DNA of 64,000 bases from Patescibacteria group bacterium (GTDB lineage: Bacteria > Patescibacteriota > Microgenomatia > UBA8517), in NCBI GenBank assembly GCA_025999275.1, contig AP024680.1, positions 684,522 to 748,521 on the forward strand. Direction: 5' to 3'. A model generated the notes under the pieces. The model made no database searches, had not been told where the DNA came from, and was given only the letters and a program-made list of their open reading frames with translations. Positions within the stretch are counted from its first letter, which is position 1. Every line of letters starts with the position of its first letter. Both the position numbers and the translations under genes were made by a program. Below are positions 13,225 to 21,547 of this stretch, piece by piece.

Positions 13225-13296
13225 CGGGGTGTAGGTCATCGGTAGACCGCTCGGTTCGGGTCCGAGAGGCACTGGGTTCAATTCCCAGCACCCCGA
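13225..13296 (+). tRNA. tRNA-Pro (anticodon CGG)
   Basis: Acceptor cggggtg/caccccg; anticodon stem ctcgg/ccgag with loop ttCGGgt; T arm ctggg-ttcaatt-cccag. TATAAT 13210-13215. Confidence 0.85.
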
Positions 13297-13389
13297 CATA
13301 AAAAATTACCAGGGTGTGAAGCTATCACACCCCCAGGGTGGGTAAAGAATTTTCCTTTTTATAAAAGCTATAATTAAGCTAATAAACCT

Positions 13390-14727
13390 ATGGACAATTT
13401 CCAACAACCAACACCACCATTTCAACCGAATGGCATGCCGCAGCTAACTACTCCCATTATCCCTGAACCAGCTAAGTCCAAACGCTGGCTATATATACTG
13501 GGCGGAGTTTTAATTGTCGGAGTAATAGCGACGGCGAGCATTATCTTCTTAAAAGAAAAATCTCCGCAATTGGAATTAGAATCGCCGAAAAAGGAAGTTC
13601 AGACTTCTAATCCCATGGATAAAACCGCTGAAGTCAACGCCGAATTCAGAGCGGTTTTTGCTGTTGTTGAGGGGTTGAAAATGAACATCTATTCATCTAA
13701 GGAAAATGGATCTGATAGAAAACTTATTTTGTCTCAAGATATTAGCGAACCAAATACACGAGCAAGGCCGTTTACTGTGGTAGATATAAAGGTTTCTCCA
13801 ACTAAAGATTTAATAGCTTACAAGTTTCCGCCCGCAGAAAACTATACAGTTTCCGGACCTGCTTCCGTTTTCTTGATTGACTCCCAAGGGCAAAATAGAA
13901 AGAAAATTCTTGATAAAGTAGAAACTTTTGGTTGGTCTCGTGATGGTAAAAAAAATCATCTACTCTACCGCAACTCCAAAATTTGATAATCCCAACGCTG
14001 GAGTATCTTTTTCCAGTCCTGGCGCGGAATGGCATATTTTTGATATAGCAAGTTCCAAAGACACAATCATTGCAAAACCAGAACAGCAAATTCCATTCTC
14101 TAGGTTCGTGGATCAATGAGAATAAGTTCATTTTTATCAGCATTAACATTTCCGGATCTGAGCTTGTGTTGTTTGACTCCACAACTCAAAAATCAGAGAA
14201 AATAAAACTCCCAGAAGGATATACTCAAGTTAGAGAAGTGAGCACAAACCCGTCCGGCAGTAAAACTGTTGTATCGCTCTTGCCAGAAGGTTACGGCATA
14301 AATTATTCTTGCGATTTTTATGAGATACAAATGAGCGGCAAGTTAGGCAATCACCTTATCGCTGACAAAAATTATTCTTGCGAGGGTGTCGCTTGGAATG
14401 GCGATAATGAATTTTATTACGGGAAAGGAACGGGACCGAAAGGCACTATTTCGACAAGCGAAACCAGCGAGTCGGGTTATTATGTACTTCTTTCCGTGTA
14501 TAAATATAATTTCAATACTGGAAAAAGATGTGCCAGTATTGAAAAGCGACGGAAAAGAAGTTTACAGATTCCAAGATGTACTTGAAAATCAGGGTTTTGT
14601 TGTGTCCAATGAGAGTAACAAGAGAGTCCCAAAATATATACTTGAGATGAGAAAACTGGACGGAAGCAGTCCACAGCAACTATTTACAAGCGATAAGGAA
14701 ATGTTGTTTATTGGTTGGAGTAAATAG
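13390..14727 (+). pseudogene. TolB-like beta-propeller membrane-anchored protein broken into four successive frames
   Basis: ORFs 13390-13986, 13928-14119, 14070-14585 and 14386-14727 follow each other in frames 1, 2, 0 and 1. They carry WSRDGKK / YSTATPKF-type propeller motifs and an N-terminal TM. It is either a frameshifted pseudogene or assembly error. Confidence 0.4.
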
Positions 14728-14776
14728 TGCGGCACGCCAACTTTGTTGGTACGAAATTCGGCGGCGGCGAAAGCGA

Positions 14777-14824
14777 GGGCGGGCAAAAATTCATTCCCCC
14801 AACCCCCTTTCTTTTTGCCCGCCC
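14777..14824. other. GC-rich 13-bp perfect inverted repeat (gggcgggcaaaaa / tttttgcccgccc) within an anomalous GC-rich ~260-bp island
   Basis: Stem 14777-14789 pairs with 14812-14824 around a 22-nt C-rich loop, followed by tattttt. The island (14727-14990) is far more GC-rich than its flanks and has no convincing ORF. Confidence 0.4.
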
Positions 14825-15136
14825 GCTATTTTTGGGCGGTGGATGGGTTGTGCGTTGCCTTTGGCGACGCACAAGTCAGTCAAGATTTTGTTCAAAAAAA
14901 GGTTCGTGCTTCGTTCAGTAATTGCGACCAATTTCTTACCAAAGAAAAGGAATTAAATTCCCAAGATCAGAAGTAATTAATCCTTTTTTTTTAACTTTCA
15001 CTTCGAATCACAAAATTTAAAAATTAATAATTTTACCCTCTTCTATATAGCCTCTCAAAATATTTTATTATCTCTCTTGCAGCATTAATCCCCGTTATAC
15101 TTCTCTAAACCTTCAAATTGAGGTGAAGGATTGACT

Positions 15137-15749
15137 TCAAGAATATAAAAACTTACCTGTACTCTTATTAATAATAATATCAACCCCAGCTATTTCAGTT
15201 CTTGTTACCTTTGCAGCCTTCTCAGCCAAATCCTTTATTTCAGGATATTTTTCCAAGTCAAAACTTTCCCCTTTTCCACCTTGGCTAATATTGCTCCTAA
15301 ACTCCCCTTCCCTTGTTGGCATTCTCTTCATTGCCCCTATTGCTTTATAACCAACGGTAAAAATCCTCAAGTCTCCATCATTAGGAATAAACTCACGAAT
15401 AATTTACAGATTTGGCTTGAGTTTTATGGATTTTATTTATAGCATTCTCAACATCAGAAAAATCGTTACACAAATAAACCCCCGTACCTTGTCTGCTGAT
15501 ACTTGTTTTGACTATCACAGGATACGAGAATTTATCAATCGCCATTTTTGCCCCTTTAATATTAAAAACAACAGCAGAATCAGGATAAGGCAAATTTGAT
15601 TCGGCCTGCCTCAAATAATCAATTGCCGGAGTTAGGTAATAATTATAATCAGAAGCTATAGACTTCTGGTTTACAATAACAGTTCCAAAATTTTTGGAAA
15701 GATAAAGGCACGCCGTATACCACTCCCAACGCCCTATTACTAACCACAA
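15137..15749 (-). pseudogene. RimK-like ATP-grasp ligase remnant (two frame fragments)
   Basis: 15393-15749 encodes YPVIVKTSISRQGTGVYLCNDFSDVENAI (ATP-grasp N-lobe). 15137-15370 encodes SNISQGGKGESFDL...IAGVDII (C-lobe) in another frame. Confidence 0.5.
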
Positions 15750-15930
15750 GATATATCAAGTCGTAATAAGAAAGCTTTCTACCATCAGCCAGATAAGCAT
15801 CAAAAAATCACTCCTACAATCAAGTATTAATCAGTCGCATAGCAACCATCAACCACATGGCCACGTTTTTCCCCTTCTTCTCTTAGCCTAACAACCTGAA
15901 TATTTTCAACAAGACCTGCTATTAATATTT

Positions 15931-16811
15931 TCATATTACCTTGCATTTTACTATTGCGTTCTCAAGCCAAATTTTGCCTATATTTTTACCCGTTGCCTTC
16001 TCCATACCAACAAAACCTGCGGTGTGATTAACCTCCAAAATATAGCGACTACCATCTTCCCCTATCAATATGTCAACCCCACCAACAGACATGTCAACCG
16101 TCTTTAGAGCTCTTATGGCAAGATTTTTATCATCAGAAGAGATATCAAAAGCTTGACAGAACCACCCAAGGAAAAATTCGCCCTAAACTCACCCTTTTTT
16201 GGTATTCTTTCCATACAAAAGGACATTATTACCAATTACTAAACACCTAAGATCATGCCGATAATCAATAAATTCCTGCATTAAATAACTTTTTGCCTCT
16301 TTTCCCTCAATTTTTAACCTTTCTATAAAAGAAGACAAATCATCCTTAGAATTAATCTTAAACACGGAATATCCTTTTCCAGCTCTTGCTGTTTTAATTA
16401 CTAAAGGAAAACCAATCTTTTGTGACAATTCCTCGTACTTAGAGAAATCATAACTATAAAAAGTCCTAGGTATAGGTATACCAGCCAAGGCAAGTTTGAG
16501 AATGTCTGAAACCTTATCAATTGAGTACTTATGTTGTGCAAGATTGTTGTCAAACACCTTAATTCCGCGATTTCTAAGATTACCTATAATTGTAGCAATT
16601 GGTTTGATACTATTTAAAAATACCCCTAAAAATAACCAGATCAGCTTCTAGCCTTTCAAGACCTTGCAAATCAATATTTCCCTTATCTATAAAAAAAGTA
16701 AAATTATGCAAATCAATTAACTCAAAATCATGTCCCCAGAGAAAGAACCTCTTCTTTAATTCTCTTATTTTCCTCCAAAGAAGGAAGTGTTGTAATTAAG
16801 ATTATCTTCAT
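15931..16811 (-). pseudogene. RimK-like ATP-grasp ligase broken into at least three frame fragments
   Basis: 16811-16611 reads MKIILITTLPSLEENKRIKEEVLSLGHDFELIDL (pre-ATP-grasp). 16557-16189 reads GFPLVIKTARAGKGYSVFKINSKDDL... 16107-15934 reads VDMSVGGVDILIGEDGSRYILEVNHTAGFVGMEKATGKNIGKIWLENAI. These sit in different frames separated by stops. Confidence 0.5.
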
Positions 16812-16856
16812 ATCTTAAAATTTCTAACCAACTCCTTCTTCTCTTCAGCATCGATA

Positions 16857-18137
16857 TCAGAACGAACAAGTACACCCTTTTAAATCTTTTCTTCCTACTA
16901 TAACAGGAAATTGCAAAGAGATTCTCTTGGCAACAGTAGCTGAAGTTTCAATTCTTCTACCATTAAGCCAGAAGGTTAAATTTATTACTTTCCTCTTCTC
17001 CCTACCCAAAGAACTTTTTACCTCTTTAGTCCAAAGAATATTGCTATCAGACAACAAGCCAAGTTTTTCCGCCAATCTTTTATCTATAGAGGTTCGCCAT
17101 GCACCAGTATCCATTTTGGCCGGCACCTCAAACTTATTTCCACCAGCAGACTTTATCTTTATTCTTTCAAATACATTAACCATTCTTATTCCCCCATCCG
17201 TCTTAACTCTATCAGCAAAAGGGCTAGCAAATAAAGCTTTGGCTATTCTAATTCCATGCTCAGCGTCACGCACTTCTAAATCTTCAATCTTCATTAACCT
17301 TTTCTTTAACCCTTCTCCATTTGCCATTTGAATTGAAAGACCGGGCTGAGAGTTAATTTCCAAAACCACAGGCCCTCTTTCAGGATGTAAAACCACATCC
17401 ACCCCAACATACCCCAAAAAACAAGCTTCTTGGGCCTTAACTGCGGTTTGCAAAATCTTGTCCCACTGTGGAATCTTAATCCCATGAAGCTTCCTTTTAG
17501 TTCCCGGTTTAAATTTAATCAAGTCCCCATGCCAAATTGCACGAGTTGTTATACCTGTTGCAATATCAACACCCACACCAATTGCCCCCTGATGCAAATT
17601 TGCTCTGCCACCTGATTCTTTGGTAGGAAGCCTAAGCATAGCCATCACCGGAACCTTGTTAAAAACAATCACTCGAATATCAGGCGTACCACGATATGCA
17701 TATTTTCTAAAAGCCTTGTGCCTTCCCACATACTCCTCAATATAGGCAATGTCAGGCTCGTTTCCCATTGAATAAGCACCCTCTATAATATCCGTTGCGT
17801 GAAGTTTTAAGTCATCAATTGTCACCTTTTTCCTCTGAGTAGTAATCCAACCATCTCCGTCTTTTGATCTCTTTTTAACAACAATTATTCCCTCTCCCCC
17901 TAAACCCTGATTTGGCTTCAAAGCAAAACTTGAAGGCAGACTGTTCCAATCAAAATTCCAAATCTCATCAGTATTTTTAAACTTGGCATACACTTCAGGA
18001 ATTGGGACCCCAGCTTGCTTTAGATATCTTTTTGTTTTTAATTTTGAAGCGGCAATGCTTTTGCCCTTAGAGCTATTATAAACATAGGAAAACAATTTAT
18101 TTCTTGCATTTATACCCAATAAATCGGAAGTTTTCAT
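16857..18137 (-). CDS. ATP-grasp amidoligase (alpha-L-glutamate-ligase-related type) fused to a C-terminal retropepsin-like aspartic protease domain
   Basis: N-terminal ~300 aa carries GGEGIIVVKK...VGVDVVLHPERGPVVLEINSQPG (ATP-grasp E-x-N motif). The C-terminal ~110 aa carries FEVPAKMDTGAWRTSID (D-T/S-G-A retropepsin signature). Confidence 0.65.
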   Translation of the reverse strand: MKTSDLLGINARNKLFSYVYNSSKGKSIAASKLKTKRYLKQAGVPIPEVYAKFKNTDEIWNFDWNSLPSSFALKPNQGLGGEGIIVVKKRSKDGDGWITTQRKKVTIDDLKLHATDIIEGAYSMGNEPDIAYIEEYVGRHKAFRKYAYRGTPDIRVIVFNKVPVMAMLRLPTKESGGRANLHQGAIGVGVDIATGITTRAIWHGDLIKFKPGTKRKLHGIKIPQWDKILQTAVKAQEACFLGYVGVDVVLHPERGPVVLEINSQPGLSIQMANGEGLKKRLMKIEDLEVRDAEHGIRIAKALFASPFADRVKTDGGIRMVNVFERIKIKSAGGNKFEVPAKMDTGAWRTSIDKRLAEKLGLLSDSNILWTKEVKSSLGREKRKVINLTFWLNGRRIETSATVAKRISLQFPVIVGRKDLKGCTCSF

Positions 18138-18163
18138 AATTTTTGATAGTAAAAATTAATCTT

Positions 18164-19081
18164 TTATTTATCAATCAGTTTCCTAAAACGCCAGTACTCC
18201 ATTAGACGAAGACCTGTATATTTACCAACCAAAAAATCAGCAACAAAAACCAAAAGTAAAAATACTTCTGGATTCAAAAGTGCAAAATAACGAAGCGGCT
18301 CAAAAGTTAAAAGCAAATAAGAAAGAAGAGCCAAAATTAAGGTCTCAGTTGTTAAATCAATAGCTGTTCTAATACTTTTACCCGTTTGGATTCTTGAAAA
18401 ATCCTCAGCCAAAAGAACAAGTATAAGAACAGGAAAAATAGAAATATTAGCCAAATCAGGCTGTTTAATAACAGGTGCCAAGAAGATAACCCCCAAAACA
18501 CCTATTACTACAAACCACAAAACCATCGCCATCCTTGGCAAATACTGGAGTTTTATTTTAAGTTTACGGGTAATCATCCTAAAAGCTGTTGAGAAAACAA
18601 TCATTACAACAAAAATAACCACTCCCAAGACAGGACCCGTAGCTATTAAGGCAACAGATAAGGCGGCGGGCATAAAAATTCCAAACCCACGAAGGCCAAT
18701 TAGATGCCTTGAGGCGGAAATAAAAGCGGCAACAGCAGGAAGAAGAAGCAAAAGCACAATTGTGTTAGCAGGAACACCGGCTGAAACTGCGTTTCTGATA
18801 GCATATTTGATAAAATTAAAGGGCCAAACTGGACCAACTTTTTGAGCCGATAAAGCCTTCTCCAGTGGACCAACTGATTCTTCTGTTTTTTGAGTAATAT
18901 CAACCTTGGGTTGTGGAGTTGGAGTAACCTCAACAGTTGGGCTTGGTTCAAGGGTGGGTGAAGCAAAAGGAGTAGCCAGCTTTATCTTTTGTGTACCCTG
19001 CCCCAAAGAAACCTTAGGAACAAAGAAAGAAAACAATAAGAGTAAAAACAAAATGGACGCAAAAAATCTCCTAGCCTTCAT
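18164..19081 (-). CDS. Multi-pass (about 6-7 TM) membrane protein, candidate partner of the ATP-grasp/protease gene
   Basis: 305 aa with a signal/TM N-terminus, a Pro/Thr linker and then repeated hydrophobic helices. It lies immediately upstream of 16857-18137 on the same strand. Confidence 0.55.
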   Translation of the reverse strand: MKARRFFASILFLLLLFSFFVPKVSLGQGTQKIKLATPFASPTLEPSPTVEVTPTPQPKVDITQKTEESVGPLEKALSAQKVGPVWPFNFIKYAIRNAVSAGVPANTIVLLLLLPAVAAFISASRHLIGLRGFGIFMPAALSVALIATGPVLGVVIFVVMIVFSTAFRMITRKLKIKLQYLPRMAMVLWFVVIGVLGVIFLAPVIKQPDLANISIFPVLILVLLAEDFSRIQTGKSIRTAIDLTTETLILALLSYLLLTFEPLRYFALLNPEVFLLLVFVADFLVGKYTGLRLMEYWRFRKLIDK

Positions 19082-19589
19082 AATTGTTTGTATTATACCT
19101 CAAATCAAACAAATAATCATTTAGTTAGATATGAATTATGAATATGGGTATGGGGTATGGGAAATATAATTCAAAATTCCTACCTAACGGCAGGCAGGCA
19201 AAGTTACCAGCCCTAGGCTGTTTGGTCTTGGGCCAAAAAATTAAAAGTTATAAAAATAATTTCTAAATTCTAATATCTAACTTCTAAACAAATTCTAGTT
19301 TTTCAATTTCACCAAATCACAAACAAACAATAATTTGTTTTTTTAAAGATAAATAATTAAATATTGCTTAGGATTTACAAATTAGGATTTAGGATTTCTA
19401 ATAAATATTTCATAAAAACCTTTGACTTTTGAATTTTAACCTTTGAATTATTTTTATTCATAATTCTTATAATTCTTAAATCTTAAATTATAAATCTTAA
19501 ATCTATATTCCTTTTCATTACCACAAGTTTATTTGGGATCTAAAGATCAACGGTCGAAGGATAGTAAAACTCTGATTTCTATATAGCAG

Positions 19590-19674
19590 TGGGCAAGGAG
19601 GGATTCGAACCCTCACGATGCTTTCGCACCACAAGTTTTTGAGACTTGCCTGTCTACCGTTCCAGCACTTGCCC
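19590..19674 (-). tRNA. tRNA-Leu (anticodon CAA)
   Basis: Reverse complement reads gggcaag..; anticodon stem caagt/acttg with loop ctCAAaa; long variable arm tggtgcgaaagcatc; T arm gaggg-ttcgaat-ccctc; acceptor cttgccc. Extended -10 TGtGATAAAAT upstream. Confidence 0.9.
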
Positions 19675-19882
19675 TCTTTGCAATATTTTATCACACTTTA
19701 CCTCGCAATTTAAAACAGCAGGAAAAACACTTAATTATTTATTAAGATAATCACCACAAAAGGAACAAAAACAGCCCAAAATTAATAATTAAAAAACAAA
19801 AGAATAAAGCAGAAACGTTTTTGACTACAGGAAACATTTAATTAATTGACAAAACAAAAAATAACCTTTATTCTAAAAACAA

Positions 19883-21028
19883 ATGCCCAATCAATATCCA
19901 AACCCATCAAATGAACCAACACAAGTAAGCGCAGATGAAATTGCTCTTAATTCTTCTGTTTCTATTAAACCACCAGATAGCGCATCTTTCAATCAAGAAC
20001 CACAAAACAACATCAACACCACTTCCTTTCCCCCACAAAATTCAGATAGCAATGGCAACAACAGCATAAAGAATAAAAAATCGCATACCAAAACAATTGT
20101 AGCTTCTATACTAGGAATTCTTTTACTTGCTGGTGGTGTTGGCGCTGGAACATTTTTGGTTAAACAAAGACAAGATATTAGAGAAAAAGCTGCACTACCC
20201 ACATGCGAACAAGAGGGAGGAAAATGTGTACCAGAATCCTATTATTGCACTGAAGGTAGTACAAGCGAATTTAGGTGTCCTACTGGTAAAAAATGTGGAT
20301 TCGGAGATTGTAGTCTACCCAAATCAACCCCTTCACCAATAAAAACAACAGAACCTAAACCAGAACCAACCAACCCGCCTTCGCTCTGCAACAGAGTTCC
20401 AACAAACCAAATAAGAAAAGAGTGGGGAAACACATTAACAATAACACAAGAAGATATCAATAAATGTAAAGCCGCCTGTCCAGATGGAGTAATCTGGGTA
20501 TCAAAATATAAGTGTGATGGTATAAACCTATCACAAGGATGCCAAGATAATGGAACCGTGCTAACATGGAACGCAAAAGCAGGTGACAGTTTTTCTGTTG
20601 GCACTTTAGATTGTGGCACAGTCCAAATAGATGCCGGGTGCAAAAATAGTGCAAACACTTATGGAAATGTTGCTTATCTTTCCACTTCTGCCAATGTGCC
20701 GTGTAATACCCCTGCCCCAACAAATCCTCCAATAGAAGAAACAACTCAGTGCTTAAACTTGAAAGTTTATGACACCAACTGGAACATTATCCCAAATAAC
20801 CTATTATCACAACTAAAACCTGGAGACAAAATCAGATTTGCCGCTAGTGGATCACCAGCAAACAAAATCGATAAAGCTAAATTTACAATAAATGGAGTTG
20901 AGACTCTCGAAATATCAAACAAAAAACCTGGTTCTGATGAATTCTATACTGAATACGAAATACCATCAGGTGTAAGAAGTTTCACAGTAACAGTAAAATT
21001 ACATCACATAACCTTGGGTTGGTTCTAA
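19883..21028 (+). CDS. Hypothetical membrane-anchored Cys-rich extracellular protein
   Basis: 381 aa. N-terminal low-complexity region, TM (IVASILGILLLAGGVGAG), then a domain with more than 20 Cys. Confidence 0.5.
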   Translation: MPNQYPNPSNEPTQVSADEIALNSSVSIKPPDSASFNQEPQNNINTTSFPPQNSDSNGNNSIKNKKSHTKTIVASILGILLLAGGVGAGTFLVKQRQDIREKAALPTCEQEGGKCVPESYYCTEGSTSEFRCPTGKKCGFGDCSLPKSTPSPIKTTEPKPEPTNPPSLCNRVPTNQIRKEWGNTLTITQEDINKCKAACPDGVIWVSKYKCDGINLSQGCQDNGTVLTWNAKAGDSFSVGTLDCGTVQIDAGCKNSANTYGNVAYLSTSANVPCNTPAPTNPPIEETTQCLNLKVYDTNWNIIPNNLLSQLKPGDKIRFAASGSPANKIDKAKFTINGVETLEISNKKPGSDEFYTEYEIPSGVRSFTVTVKLHHITLGWF

Positions 21029-21037
21029 CTTTTAAAG

Positions 21038-21547
21038 ATGGAAAAAAATAAAACAAAAATAACAATAGCAATAATTGGAATGCTTATATTGGCAAGTATT
21101 GCCATATTTATGGCAATAAGACTCTACCAATTAAGACAGTCTAGCGTCTCCCCAAATGCACCAGAAAGCAAACCAGAAGCAGCAGGCAACAATACAATTT
21201 CTTGCTCTACCCTCACATTTTCAATTTCAACACCCACCCCAACACCAACATCTACCCCAACCTTGACAAATACTCCAAGACCAACAAATTCTCCTACTCC
21301 CACAATAACACCAACTCCTACTTCAAGTGTTGTTCCCACAATAACACCAACTCCTACTTCAAGTATAAGACCCACAAACACTGCTACCCCAACTCCCACA
21401 AGAACACCAATCGTTCCAACTTCTATTAATCAACCAACTCCAACTCTAGAAGCCTCTCTCCCTGAAGCCGGAGTGTCTTGGCCAACTATCCTAGGTGTAG
21501 CTGGAGGTGCAATAATGCTGATTATATCATTGCTACTTGCCTTATAA
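21038..21547 (+). CDS. Pro/Thr-rich surface protein with C-terminal LPEAG + hydrophobic tail (sortase-signal-like)
   Basis: 169 aa. N-terminal TM, long (T/P)n linker, C-terminus [30 protein letters not shown]. Confidence 0.45.

Follow-up and report, generated by a model that had tools for sequence, protein, structure and literature searches.

A conserved ligase/retropepsin fusion operon of Microgenomatia, and one-base frameshifts in its KatS3mg088 copy that are probably consensus errors

What is encoded by a gene block in which an ATP-grasp ligase runs straight into a retropepsin-like protease, and are the two RimK-like genes beside it truly decaying? The question is posed by a 64,000-nucleotide stretch of a Patescibacteria group bacterium (assembly GCA_025999275.1, contig AP024680.1, positions 684,522 to 748,521 of the forward strand), which we call the window and number from its first nucleotide. 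A preliminary description made from the sequence alone had proposed an ATP-grasp amidoligase fused to a retropepsin-like protease, an adjacent gene for a protein with about seven transmembrane (7TM) segments, and two decayed RimK-like genes. We find that the block is a minus-strand four-gene operon of a Woesebacteria-type genome, running from an RloB-like 7TM gene through an RloC-type ligase/retropepsin fusion to two RimK-family ligase genes, RimK1 and RimK2, and that its frameshifts are quite probably consensus errors. The fusion open reading frame (ORF; 426 amino acids (aa)), the 7TM ORF and the RimK fragments match exactly the proteins BCX15036-BCX15041 of the metagenome-assembled genome (MAG) KatS3mg088, which Table S3 of Kato et al. 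2022 lists as AP024680, circular, 785,860 bp, with 796 coding sequences and a GC content of 0.354, and which is placed by GTDB in class Microgenomatia, order GWA2-44-7, family UBA8517, genus Ch104c (PMC9671151). The features of the block are as follows.

19589-19674, minus strand: tRNA-Leu(CAA), the upstream limit of the block (ARAGORN; Rfam, 56.7 bits)
18164-19081, minus strand: 7TM membrane protein, first gene of the operon, 305 aa (PF14402)
16808-18137, minus strand: ATP-grasp ligase/retropepsin fusion, 442 aa in its intact form (PF14397, TIGR02291, PF05618, alignment to the relative P0001)
17271-18137, minus strand: RloC-type "alpha-L-glutamate ligase-like" ATP-grasp domain of the fusion, residues 1-289 (TIGR02291, PF14397)
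16808-17186, minus strand: retropepsin-like aspartic protease domain of the fusion, residues 318-442 (PF05618, fold search)
17100-17111, minus strand: catalytic D343-T-G-A motif (located in the sequence)
15931-16811, minus strand: RimK-family ligase gene 1 (RimK1), 290 aa when intact (fragments match PF08443 and TIGR00768)
15033-15934, minus strand: RimK-family ligase gene 2 (RimK2), 299 aa when intact (fragments match RimK-family profiles; indel map against intact relatives)

The fusion had been placed at 16857-18137, and an ORF of 426 aa is indeed annotated there on the minus strand, with matches to PF14397, TIGR02291 and PF05618 in the Pfam and TIGRFAM searches; its end had been set too early, as a +1 insertion near 16881 cuts the frame short and costs the last 22 codons. 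The shifted frame at 16808-16876 encodes GVLVRSDIDAEEKKELVRNFKI followed by a stop, identical to the C-terminus of the 442-aa relative P0001, and because the displaced frame continues into this tail, the gene properly spans 16808-18137. Starts and stops share an ATGA at both the fusion/RimK1 and the RimK1/RimK2 junctions, which suggests translational coupling, and an AT-rich spacer separates the 7TM gene from the tRNA-Leu(CAA) that had been named as the end of the block.

The N-terminal part of the fusion is an ATP-grasp domain. It matches PF14397 (E 2.7e-71, 240.4 bits against a cut-off of 31.4, residues 12-285) and TIGR02291 (E 1.9e-82, 276.8 bits, model positions 8-295 of 317), the latter without reaching the curated cut-off of 314.2 bits. 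The motif E260-x-N262 and many glycine, arginine and lysine positions are invariant in 44 sequences. An AlphaFold model of full-length P0001, which is 95% identical, has a mean predicted local distance difference test (pLDDT) score of 84.7. In it, a disordered linker (residues 306-317) connects the two domains; ATP-grasp structures dominate the Foldseek matches of the full-length model, the best being ArgX/LysX and RimK (E ~1e-9). Since no hydrophobic segment was found, the fusion protein is cytoplasmic.

Judged by profiles and a predicted fold, the C-terminal DTGA region is a genuine retropepsin-fold domain of the RimB/RloA family (PF05618, clan AA), as had been proposed. PF05618 covers residues 367-419 with 28.2 bits (cut-off 27), Asp_protease_2 lies over residues 335-365, and there are weak NCBIfam matches to RloA3, RloA2 and RimB. 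The marginal Pfam score, and the lack of a precomputed PF05618 match in about a third of the top homologues, would fit a reading in which DTGA is a chance motif or an inactive remnant and the protein merely a long RloC-like ligase. We regard this as extremely unlikely, and as already refuted computationally by residue conservation, profile search and fold search. K341, D343, T344, G345, A346, R382, R405 and R416 are invariant in 44 homologues of 62-81% identity, so that DTGA and its flanking residues are kept, and the protease part aligned at all 80 loci of a species-level survey described below. A search of the PDB with the single sequence of the domain gave at best E 0.6-0.8; a 17-sequence profile of the domain reached RloA2 (9g59, E 3.4e-6) and RloA (9g58, E 3.1e-4), then Lpg0085 (2pma) and Ddi1. 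An independent prediction of the protease domain alone (AlphaFold, pLDDT 82.7) recovered RloA 9g58 first (Foldseek, E 2.4e-7), then Lpg0085 2pma, RloA2 and Ddi1, with further matches to foamy-virus protease, HIV-1 protease and Rickettsia APRc, all at probability 1.00. The domain has kept the K-x-D-T-G-A motif, its R382 and R405 match arginines of the RloA/RloA2 sequences in the profile alignment, and it is net basic (28 K/R vs 15 D/E), which suits an acidic substrate.

The gene upstream at 18164-19081, for which about seven transmembrane segments had been predicted, encodes a PF14402 protein (E 1.9e-27, residues 108-302). Against the NCBIfam RloB model (NF052267) it scores 69.8 bits, for a cut-off of 900, and only model positions 312-506 of 508 are aligned; because the alignment is confined to the C-terminal 7TM part of the model, the protein lacks the inactive transglutaminase domain of RloB. 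Its N-terminal ~105 residues comprise a hydrophobic signal or anchor helix followed by a Pro/Thr-rich linker in the hydropathy profile.

The broken fragments downstream match PF08443 and TIGR00768, in agreement with their proposed RimK identity. Of the spans given for them, 15931-16811 was right and both genes are indeed broken in the window, whereas 15137-15749 was too short, the second gene occupying 15033-15934. The intact orthologues score above the TIGR00768 cut-off of 143.4 bits (169.1 bits for P0125, orthologue of RimK1, and 157.3 bits for P0128, orthologue of RimK2), and the two genes stay far below the cut-off of 331 bits of PRK10446, the S6-specific RimK equivalog (98 and 85.6 bits, respectively). 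No rpsF gene is present in the window. PADLOC returned no defence-system match for the four operon proteins and the protein of a neighbouring cassette (see below), a promoter and terminator consensus scan of 14700-19700 found sites no more frequent than in shuffled sequence, and Rfam reported five tRNAs and nothing else on the whole window and nothing on four related loci.

The architecture is not a peculiarity of KatS3mg088: the ligase-protease fusion is standard in Microgenomatia. The best 120 database homologues of the fusion all measure 426-463 aa, most of them carry both PF05618 and PF14397, and the named ones among them are Woesebacteria or Patescibacteria. We surveyed the lineage with one genome per GTDB species, which returned 80 loci, the number usable for each count depending on the room beside the fusion. 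All 80 belong to Microgenomatia-type MAGs (e.g., Woesebacteria, Blackburnbacteria, Woykebacteria). Wherever a locus leaves room for it, a homologous 7TM gene directly precedes the fusion (72 of 72; median gap ~15 nucleotides (nt)), and same-strand RimK-like genes follow downstream at 66 of 75, numbering one at 33 loci, two at 27 and three at six, with none at the remaining nine; clear orthologues of both RimK1 and RimK2 occur at 12 loci. From these linkage counts, the 7TM and fusion genes form the core, and the extra ligases are variable accessories (0-3). Close relatives hold the same four genes intact, so the features of the window are not a chance pattern: they measure 305, 442, 290 and 299 aa in L001, a Logan contig from run SRR16606022 with 93.3% nucleotide identity to the window, and are likewise intact in L086, a second close relative (SRR23829991, 93.8%), and in L002/L003 (82% amino-acid identity). 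The operon is thus real, conserved and unstudied in this form, with every component drawn from a known family on whose biology recent work has begun to shed light. A full-text literature search, whose coverage did not extend to Iyer et al. 2009, found no mention of the ligase-protease fusion.

Many MAG records labelled "uncultured Gammaproteobacteria bacterium" or "Pseudomonadales" carry a Woesebacteria-type operon at 57-69% identity (L006, L009, L011, L012, L014 and others). These are binchicken or SRP co-assembly bins; a further record with such an operon is titled "Woesearchaeota archaeon". The organism labels of all these records are probably placeholders or errors.

Which known systems does the operon resemble? 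Iyer, Abhiman, Burroughs and Aravind reportedly predicted in 2009, as predictions only, a peptide-synthesis or tagging system of ATP-grasp, 7TM-inactive-transglutaminase and aspartyl-protease genes, in a study that PMC12239564 cites, and we take PF14397 and PF14402 to stem from that analysis. The preliminary description had linked the locus to this recurring ligase, retropepsin-like protease and 7TM trio, and the same families are found here; its statement that the trio is functionally uncharacterised is out of date. The trio corresponds to RloABC of Pseudomonas aeruginosa and P. fluorescens, described by Lormand et al. (mBio 2025, PMC12239564), and biochemical work has been done on the cytoplasmic RimB-RimK pair as well (PMC11957791, PMC10092738). 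The Rlo system has a role in hypo-osmotic stress tolerance. Its secreted RloA proteases form retropepsin-like dimers and cut where at least eight glutamates stand in a row; a triple rloA mutant cannot grow in low-salt medium, and the defect is suppressed when either rloB, for an inactive transglutaminase plus 7TM protein, or rloC, for a cytoplasmic ATP-grasp protein, is deleted (PMC12239564), which implies a product of RloB and RloC that needs processing by RloA. The same authors proposed that rlo derived from rim by gaining RloB and a protease signal peptide, and reported 96% of RloB matches in Proteobacteria (PMC12239564). In the Rim system, RimB forms a complex with RimK, changes its ATPase rate and shortens the poly-Glu tail placed on RpsF by RimK (PMC11957791, PMC10092738).

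The likeness of the Microgenomatia operon to RloABC lies in the joint presence, in one operon, of an RloC-like PF14397 ligase (short of the TIGR02291 cut-off), a PF14402 7TM protein and a PF05618 protease, in the nearest solved structures of the fused protease (RloA 9g58 and RloA2 9g59) and, likely, in a shared logic in which the ligase product needs a Glu-specific protease. Pseudomonas RloC is presumably itself a TIGR02291 member. There are also differences. The Microgenomatia protease is fused to the ligase C-terminus, without a signal peptide and in the cytoplasm, whereas RloA is a stand-alone secreted protein; the hallmark of RloB, an inactive transglutaminase domain of ~310 residues, is missing from the 7TM protein; most loci co-encode 1-3 extra RimK-family ligases; scores fall far below the NCBIfam cut-offs (69.8 vs 900 bits for RloB, 21.6 vs 210 bits for RloA3); and the host belongs to a Patescibacteria (candidate phyla radiation, CPR) lineage. 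CPR cells are commonly portrayed as having neither outer membrane nor periplasm.

We also compared the operon with RimBK/RimABK, the Pseudomonas system that glutamylates ribosomal protein S6 (Little et al. 2016; Grenga et al. 2020; PMC11957791; PMC10092738). Both couple a cytoplasmic retropepsin-like endopeptidase to an ATP-grasp alpha-L-glutamate ligase, covalently here and as a complex in Pseudomonas, and both include TIGR00768 RimK-family genes in the same operon, in our case as judged from the intact orthologues, the window copies being frameshifted. However, the Microgenomatia protease is joined to an RloC-type rather than a RimK-type ligase, and its operon has a 7TM partner and no RimA phosphodiesterase. 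Among solved structures, the folds nearest to the ligase domain are those of the LysX/ArgX-LysW amino-group-carrier ligases (3vpb, 3vpd, 5k2m; E ~1e-9 to 1e-7), and these ligases extend a protein C-terminal glutamate, yet sequence identity is 19-20% and no LysW-like carrier or lysine or arginine biosynthesis genes lie near the operon. By its sequence families, the Microgenomatia operon is a mix: an Rlo-type ligase and 7TM protein, a Rim-like cytoplasmic protease made permanent by fusion, and true RimK ligases.

By analogy with these systems, up to three ligases would use ATP to add glutamate-type residues stepwise to a carboxylate. The product would be an acidic chain, either attached to the C-terminus of a peptide or protein or free as a poly-alpha-glutamate-like peptide. 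To form its two-aspartate active site the fused protease domain would have to dimerise; it would then cut or trim the acidic chain at the site of synthesis, much as RimK-bound RimB does, and the 7TM protein may be the partner in the membrane, taking up, anchoring or exporting the product. Proteolysis would then take place on the cytoplasmic side, unlike in Pseudomonas Rlo, with the protease tethered to an ATP-requiring enzyme and carrying no signal peptide. Domain identities, cytoplasmic location, conservation of active-site residues and strict gene linkage are established by the analysis above. In support, the nearest solved structures to the ligase domain, ArgX/LysX and RimK, all extend protein C-terminal glutamates, and the fusion speaks for a ligase and a protease that work on one and the same molecule in one place. 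Taken as a whole, with the operon identity, a Rim/Rlo-like mechanism and the indels as errors, we consider this explanation moderately probable.

Several points weigh against it: the ligase scores 276.8 bits where the curated TIGR02291 cut-off is 314.2, the protease domain is barely above its Pfam threshold (28.2 vs 27 bits), the Pfam name of the ligase family ("sugar-transfer associated") hints at a role in cell-surface polymers, and we infer the ligated amino acid, the acceptor and the role of the 7TM protein in the Microgenomatia members by analogy. A fairly unlikely alternative is that the three ATP-grasp enzymes make something other than poly-glutamate. They might produce a short hetero-peptide, cross-link peptides or decorate a cell-surface polymer through amide bonds; the 7TM protein would then be acceptor or flippase, and the retropepsin, instead of trimming a poly-acidic chain, would mature a protein, perhaps one of the ligases or the 7TM protein. 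The full Pfam label, "sugar-transfer associated ATP-grasp", and the TIGR02291 shortfall would fit such a chemistry, as would the presence of three unlike ligases in one operon, which suggests three substrates or steps; moreover, the RimK family includes the cofactor modifiers MptN and CofF and the carrier-protein modifier LysX, and both RimK paralogues match MptN/CofF/LysX-type models at E 1e-18 to 1e-35. However, all three ligases score best against glutamate-ligase families, the protease is net basic and keeps the basic residues that align with RloA/RloA2 arginines, and the experimentally studied homologues RimK, RimB and RloA all act on alpha-linked glutamate chains (PMC11957791, PMC12239564), which is why we favour a Rim/Rlo-like product. 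The operon might even be a "Rosetta-stone" link between Rim and Rlo, in which one cytoplasmic ligase/retropepsin enzyme docked on a minimal 7TM protein, together with two further ligases, builds and size-trims an acidic peptide, possibly a hetero-peptide, for transport by the 7TM protein to the surface of an episymbiotic CPR cell; we offer this as a speculation with little probability. If true, it would show the role of RloB's 7TM module without the transglutaminase domain and would provide a simpler system for finding the Rlo product. In Pseudomonas, Rlo affects antibiotic tolerance and biofilms. The CPR version is a stripped-down form, with ligase and protease in one protein and a membrane partner reduced to the 7TM bundle, and the fusion offers a compact construct for biochemistry.

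Are the RimK genes decaying? Relative to their intact relatives they carry eleven one-base indels, placed as follows.

Near 16733, 16612, 16222, 16150 and 15950 (the last at the extreme 3' end), minus strand: five one-base indels in RimK1
Near 15830, 15807, 15734, 15406, 15151 and 15096, minus strand: six one-base indels in RimK2

The twelfth operon indel is the +1 insertion near 16881 in the fusion gene. All 12 are 1 nt long and specific to the window in a three-way alignment with L001, the reference for the indels, and L086 (nine insertions, three deletions), and they fall within 1.85 kb (16881-15096), against none in the adjacent 2.17 kb of coding sequence (19081-16882). The region holds four homopolymer runs of at least six, only one of the 12 indels falls in such a run, and most lie in short runs. 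An unrelated, convergently transcribed neighbour gene at 13390-14727 has three further +1 shifts against intact 443-aa homologues (P0130). With the indels removed, RimK1 and RimK2 contain no in-frame stops, and the ratio of nonsynonymous to synonymous substitution rates (dN/dS) is 0.161 in RimK1, 0.150 in RimK2, 0.081 in the fusion gene and 0.066 in the 7TM gene; the roughly two-fold excess of the RimK genes over the fusion gene is the same between intact orthologues. Amino-acid changes polarised with outgroups number 5 and 7 on the window branch vs 4 and 5 on the L001 branch, and the nonsynonymous to synonymous codon changes in RimK1 and RimK2 together are 12:17 for the window, 24:36 for L001 and 16:24 for L086. 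The signs of a pseudogene (dN/dS toward 1, stops, deletions of varied size) are thus missing from both genes.

KatS3mg088 was assembled with metaFlye 2.8.3 from PacBio HiFi reads above Q20, and the paper describes no short-read polishing (PMC9671151); we read the value 9.6 given for this genome in its Table S3 as coverage. As an indirect comparison of read support, we used the Logan re-assembly of run DRR290133, which draws on the same reads by a procedure that drops k-mers seen only once (PMC12424806). One Logan contig (L087) is 100% identical to window positions 18085-21327 and ends at 18085, and another (L209) covers the rplK-rplA side of the gap. Six of six flanking ORFs occur in both NCBI and Logan (L11, L1, L10, L7/L12, an identical 7TM protein and a 381-aa protein), against none of the six between 12.5 and 18.1 kb (150, 198, 53, 118, 122 and 426 aa), which are found in NCBI only. 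This absence fits an interval of 5-6 kb, about the length of one HiFi read, with near-single-read support, and the ~5 indels per kb in the affected stretch are the load expected of one Q22-23 read. The 12 operon indels and the three in the adjacent unrelated gene are most likely consensus errors in a stretch of ~3 kb with very low read support, and the organism probably keeps all four operon genes intact.

The alternative is that the frameshifts are real, so that both RimK genes, the last 22 fusion codons and the cassette gene next to them were inactivated very recently, leaving only the 7TM protein and the fusion functional in a snapshot of reductive evolution in a CPR genome. Accessory ligases are dispensable in evolution, numbering 0-3 across the related genomes; the indel rate climbs with homopolymer length, as slippage predicts; the MAG was submitted as "finished" and circular; and long intact ORFs elsewhere in the window indicate a generally accurate assembly. 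Nevertheless, we judge true decay unlikely, since neutral decay with a dozen indels should bring tens of mostly nonsynonymous substitutions, and the window instead shows no measurable relaxation of selection (12:17, as in the intact relatives) and no premature stops once repaired. Every event is exactly 1 nt, with an insertion bias (9:3, plus the three +1 shifts in the neighbour gene), where Mira, Ochman and Moran reportedly found in 2001 that decay of bacterial pseudogenes is deletion-biased and varied in size. The events are spread over three unrelated genes on both strands, and the Logan re-assembly of run DRR290133 lacks the ORFs of the affected stretch. The preliminary description's "decayed" genes are therefore better explained by sequencing errors, a reading that we hold with fairly good confidence. 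Against it count the nine of 75 related genomes without downstream RimK-like genes, which shows that natural loss occurs, and the possibility of a higher natural indel rate, as many CPR bacteria apparently lack mismatch repair. The Logan absence test, moreover, depends on exact ORF identity and contig fragmentation, some absences are trivial (e.g., the 426-aa ORF is cut by a contig end), and 16.9-18.1 kb is also missing from Logan yet free of indels; read support is here gauged through this indirect test. For genome scans, the lesson is to check the substitution pattern and an independent re-assembly before taking a cluster of one-base frameshifts in a low-coverage, HiFi-only MAG for gene decay.

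Two other accounts of the frameshifts were rejected. Programmed frameshifting would have to act at twelve sites that share no motif and are all absent from relatives, and a window that is error-ridden throughout is at odds with its intact ribosomal protein genes, RNase HII gene and long ORFs at 21.5-64 kb.

Similarity to the close relatives is mosaic across 14931-19107. The 7TM gene has 59 substitutions unique to the window, with L001 and L086 nearly identical to each other, and in RimK1 the window is ~98% identical to L086, with L001 as the outlier. This mosaicism reflects either strain recombination or a chimeric consensus of co-existing strains; the latter, if it applies, would also explain poor local polishing.

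Beyond the operon, the region 19082-19880 varies among close relatives. In the window it holds tRNA-Leu(CAA) within ~730 nt, and in L001 (1-1513) and L086 (1-1733) the ~1.5 kb upstream of the operon carries an opposite-strand ORF of 238-257 aa and no detected tRNA. The products of two adjacent plus-strand genes, at 19883-21028 and 21038-21547, are anchored in the membrane or secreted, and they combine cysteine-rich modules with long low-complexity linkers rich in Pro, Thr and Ser; Pfam has no family for either, and they are likely CPR surface proteins. The Pro/Thr-rich linker of the 7TM protein resembles theirs.

On the far side of the operon, where a GC-rich island had been pointed out, lies an insert with the following features.

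13225-13297: tRNA-Pro(CGG); the insert begins exactly at its 3' end
13298-14927, plus strand: 1.63-kb insert, absent from L001 and L086 (junctions against both relatives)
13390-14727, plus strand: membrane-anchored gene of the 443-aa type with three +1 frameshifts (against P0130)
14727-14930, plus strand: GC-rich element (GC 0.47 vs ~0.36 nearby)

The insert is not part of the ligase system, although it falls within the same indel-rich stretch. Its junctions read ...CCCCGAC|ATAAAA and ...TTGCGAC|CAATTT, with only CGAC common to both, as expected of a serine-recombinase-type crossover, and the insertion removes the "CA" of the encoded CCA of tRNA-Pro(CGG). The 443-aa-type cassette protein is probably a beta-propeller. 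A homologous cassette in L084 (4888-7800) also lies downstream of a tRNA-Pro (GGG), amid RhuM and toxin-antitoxin-like genes, and from these two locations tRNA-Pro looks like a hot spot for islands.

The GC-rich element is a copy of a widespread repeat, with other copies in L084 (7593-7790), L085 and loci L088-L207; the 21-nt tail alone occurs in more than 120 metagenome contigs. A search of 14400-15200 with Rfam at E up to 1 gave no family for it, and the idea that it is a coding remnant of a 103-aa ORF of L084 was rejected, similarity being confined to the hairpins and the conserved tail. The element consists of two or three strong GC hairpins followed by a ~45-nt tail, GTTCAAAAAAGGTTCGnGCTTCGTTCAGyAATTGCGACCA, and its hairpin stems vary between copies yet remain complementary. 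The first hairpin has a constant 13-bp stem, GGGCGGGCAAAAA / TTTTTGCCCGCCC (14775-14823 in the window), and a ~23-nt loop found in both orientations, either C-rich (TTCCTTCCCCCCAACCCCC...) or its reverse complement, in a comparison of L089 and L122 with L091, L095, L107-L109 and the window copy at 14775-14823; this suggests hairpin flipping by template switching or inversion. Among the matches listed, copies are often near contig ends and 100-350 nt past the stop codons of very different genes, which include restriction-modification genes, a glycosyltransferase and a P-type ATPase. No recombinase gene occurs in the 64-kb window; at ~10 loci among the matches listed (including L101, L106, L118, L156, L184 and L204), a gene for a ~530-aa large serine recombinase with Resolvase, Recombinase and Zn_ribbon_recom domains starts ~340 nt beyond the tail. 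Element and recombinase together look like a serine-recombinase-associated mobile cassette system in CPR-type genomes. Inverted pairs of the element 3-9 kb apart, with their tails outward around cargo, were also seen among the matches listed (L088, L096, L107, L109, L121, L134 and L156).

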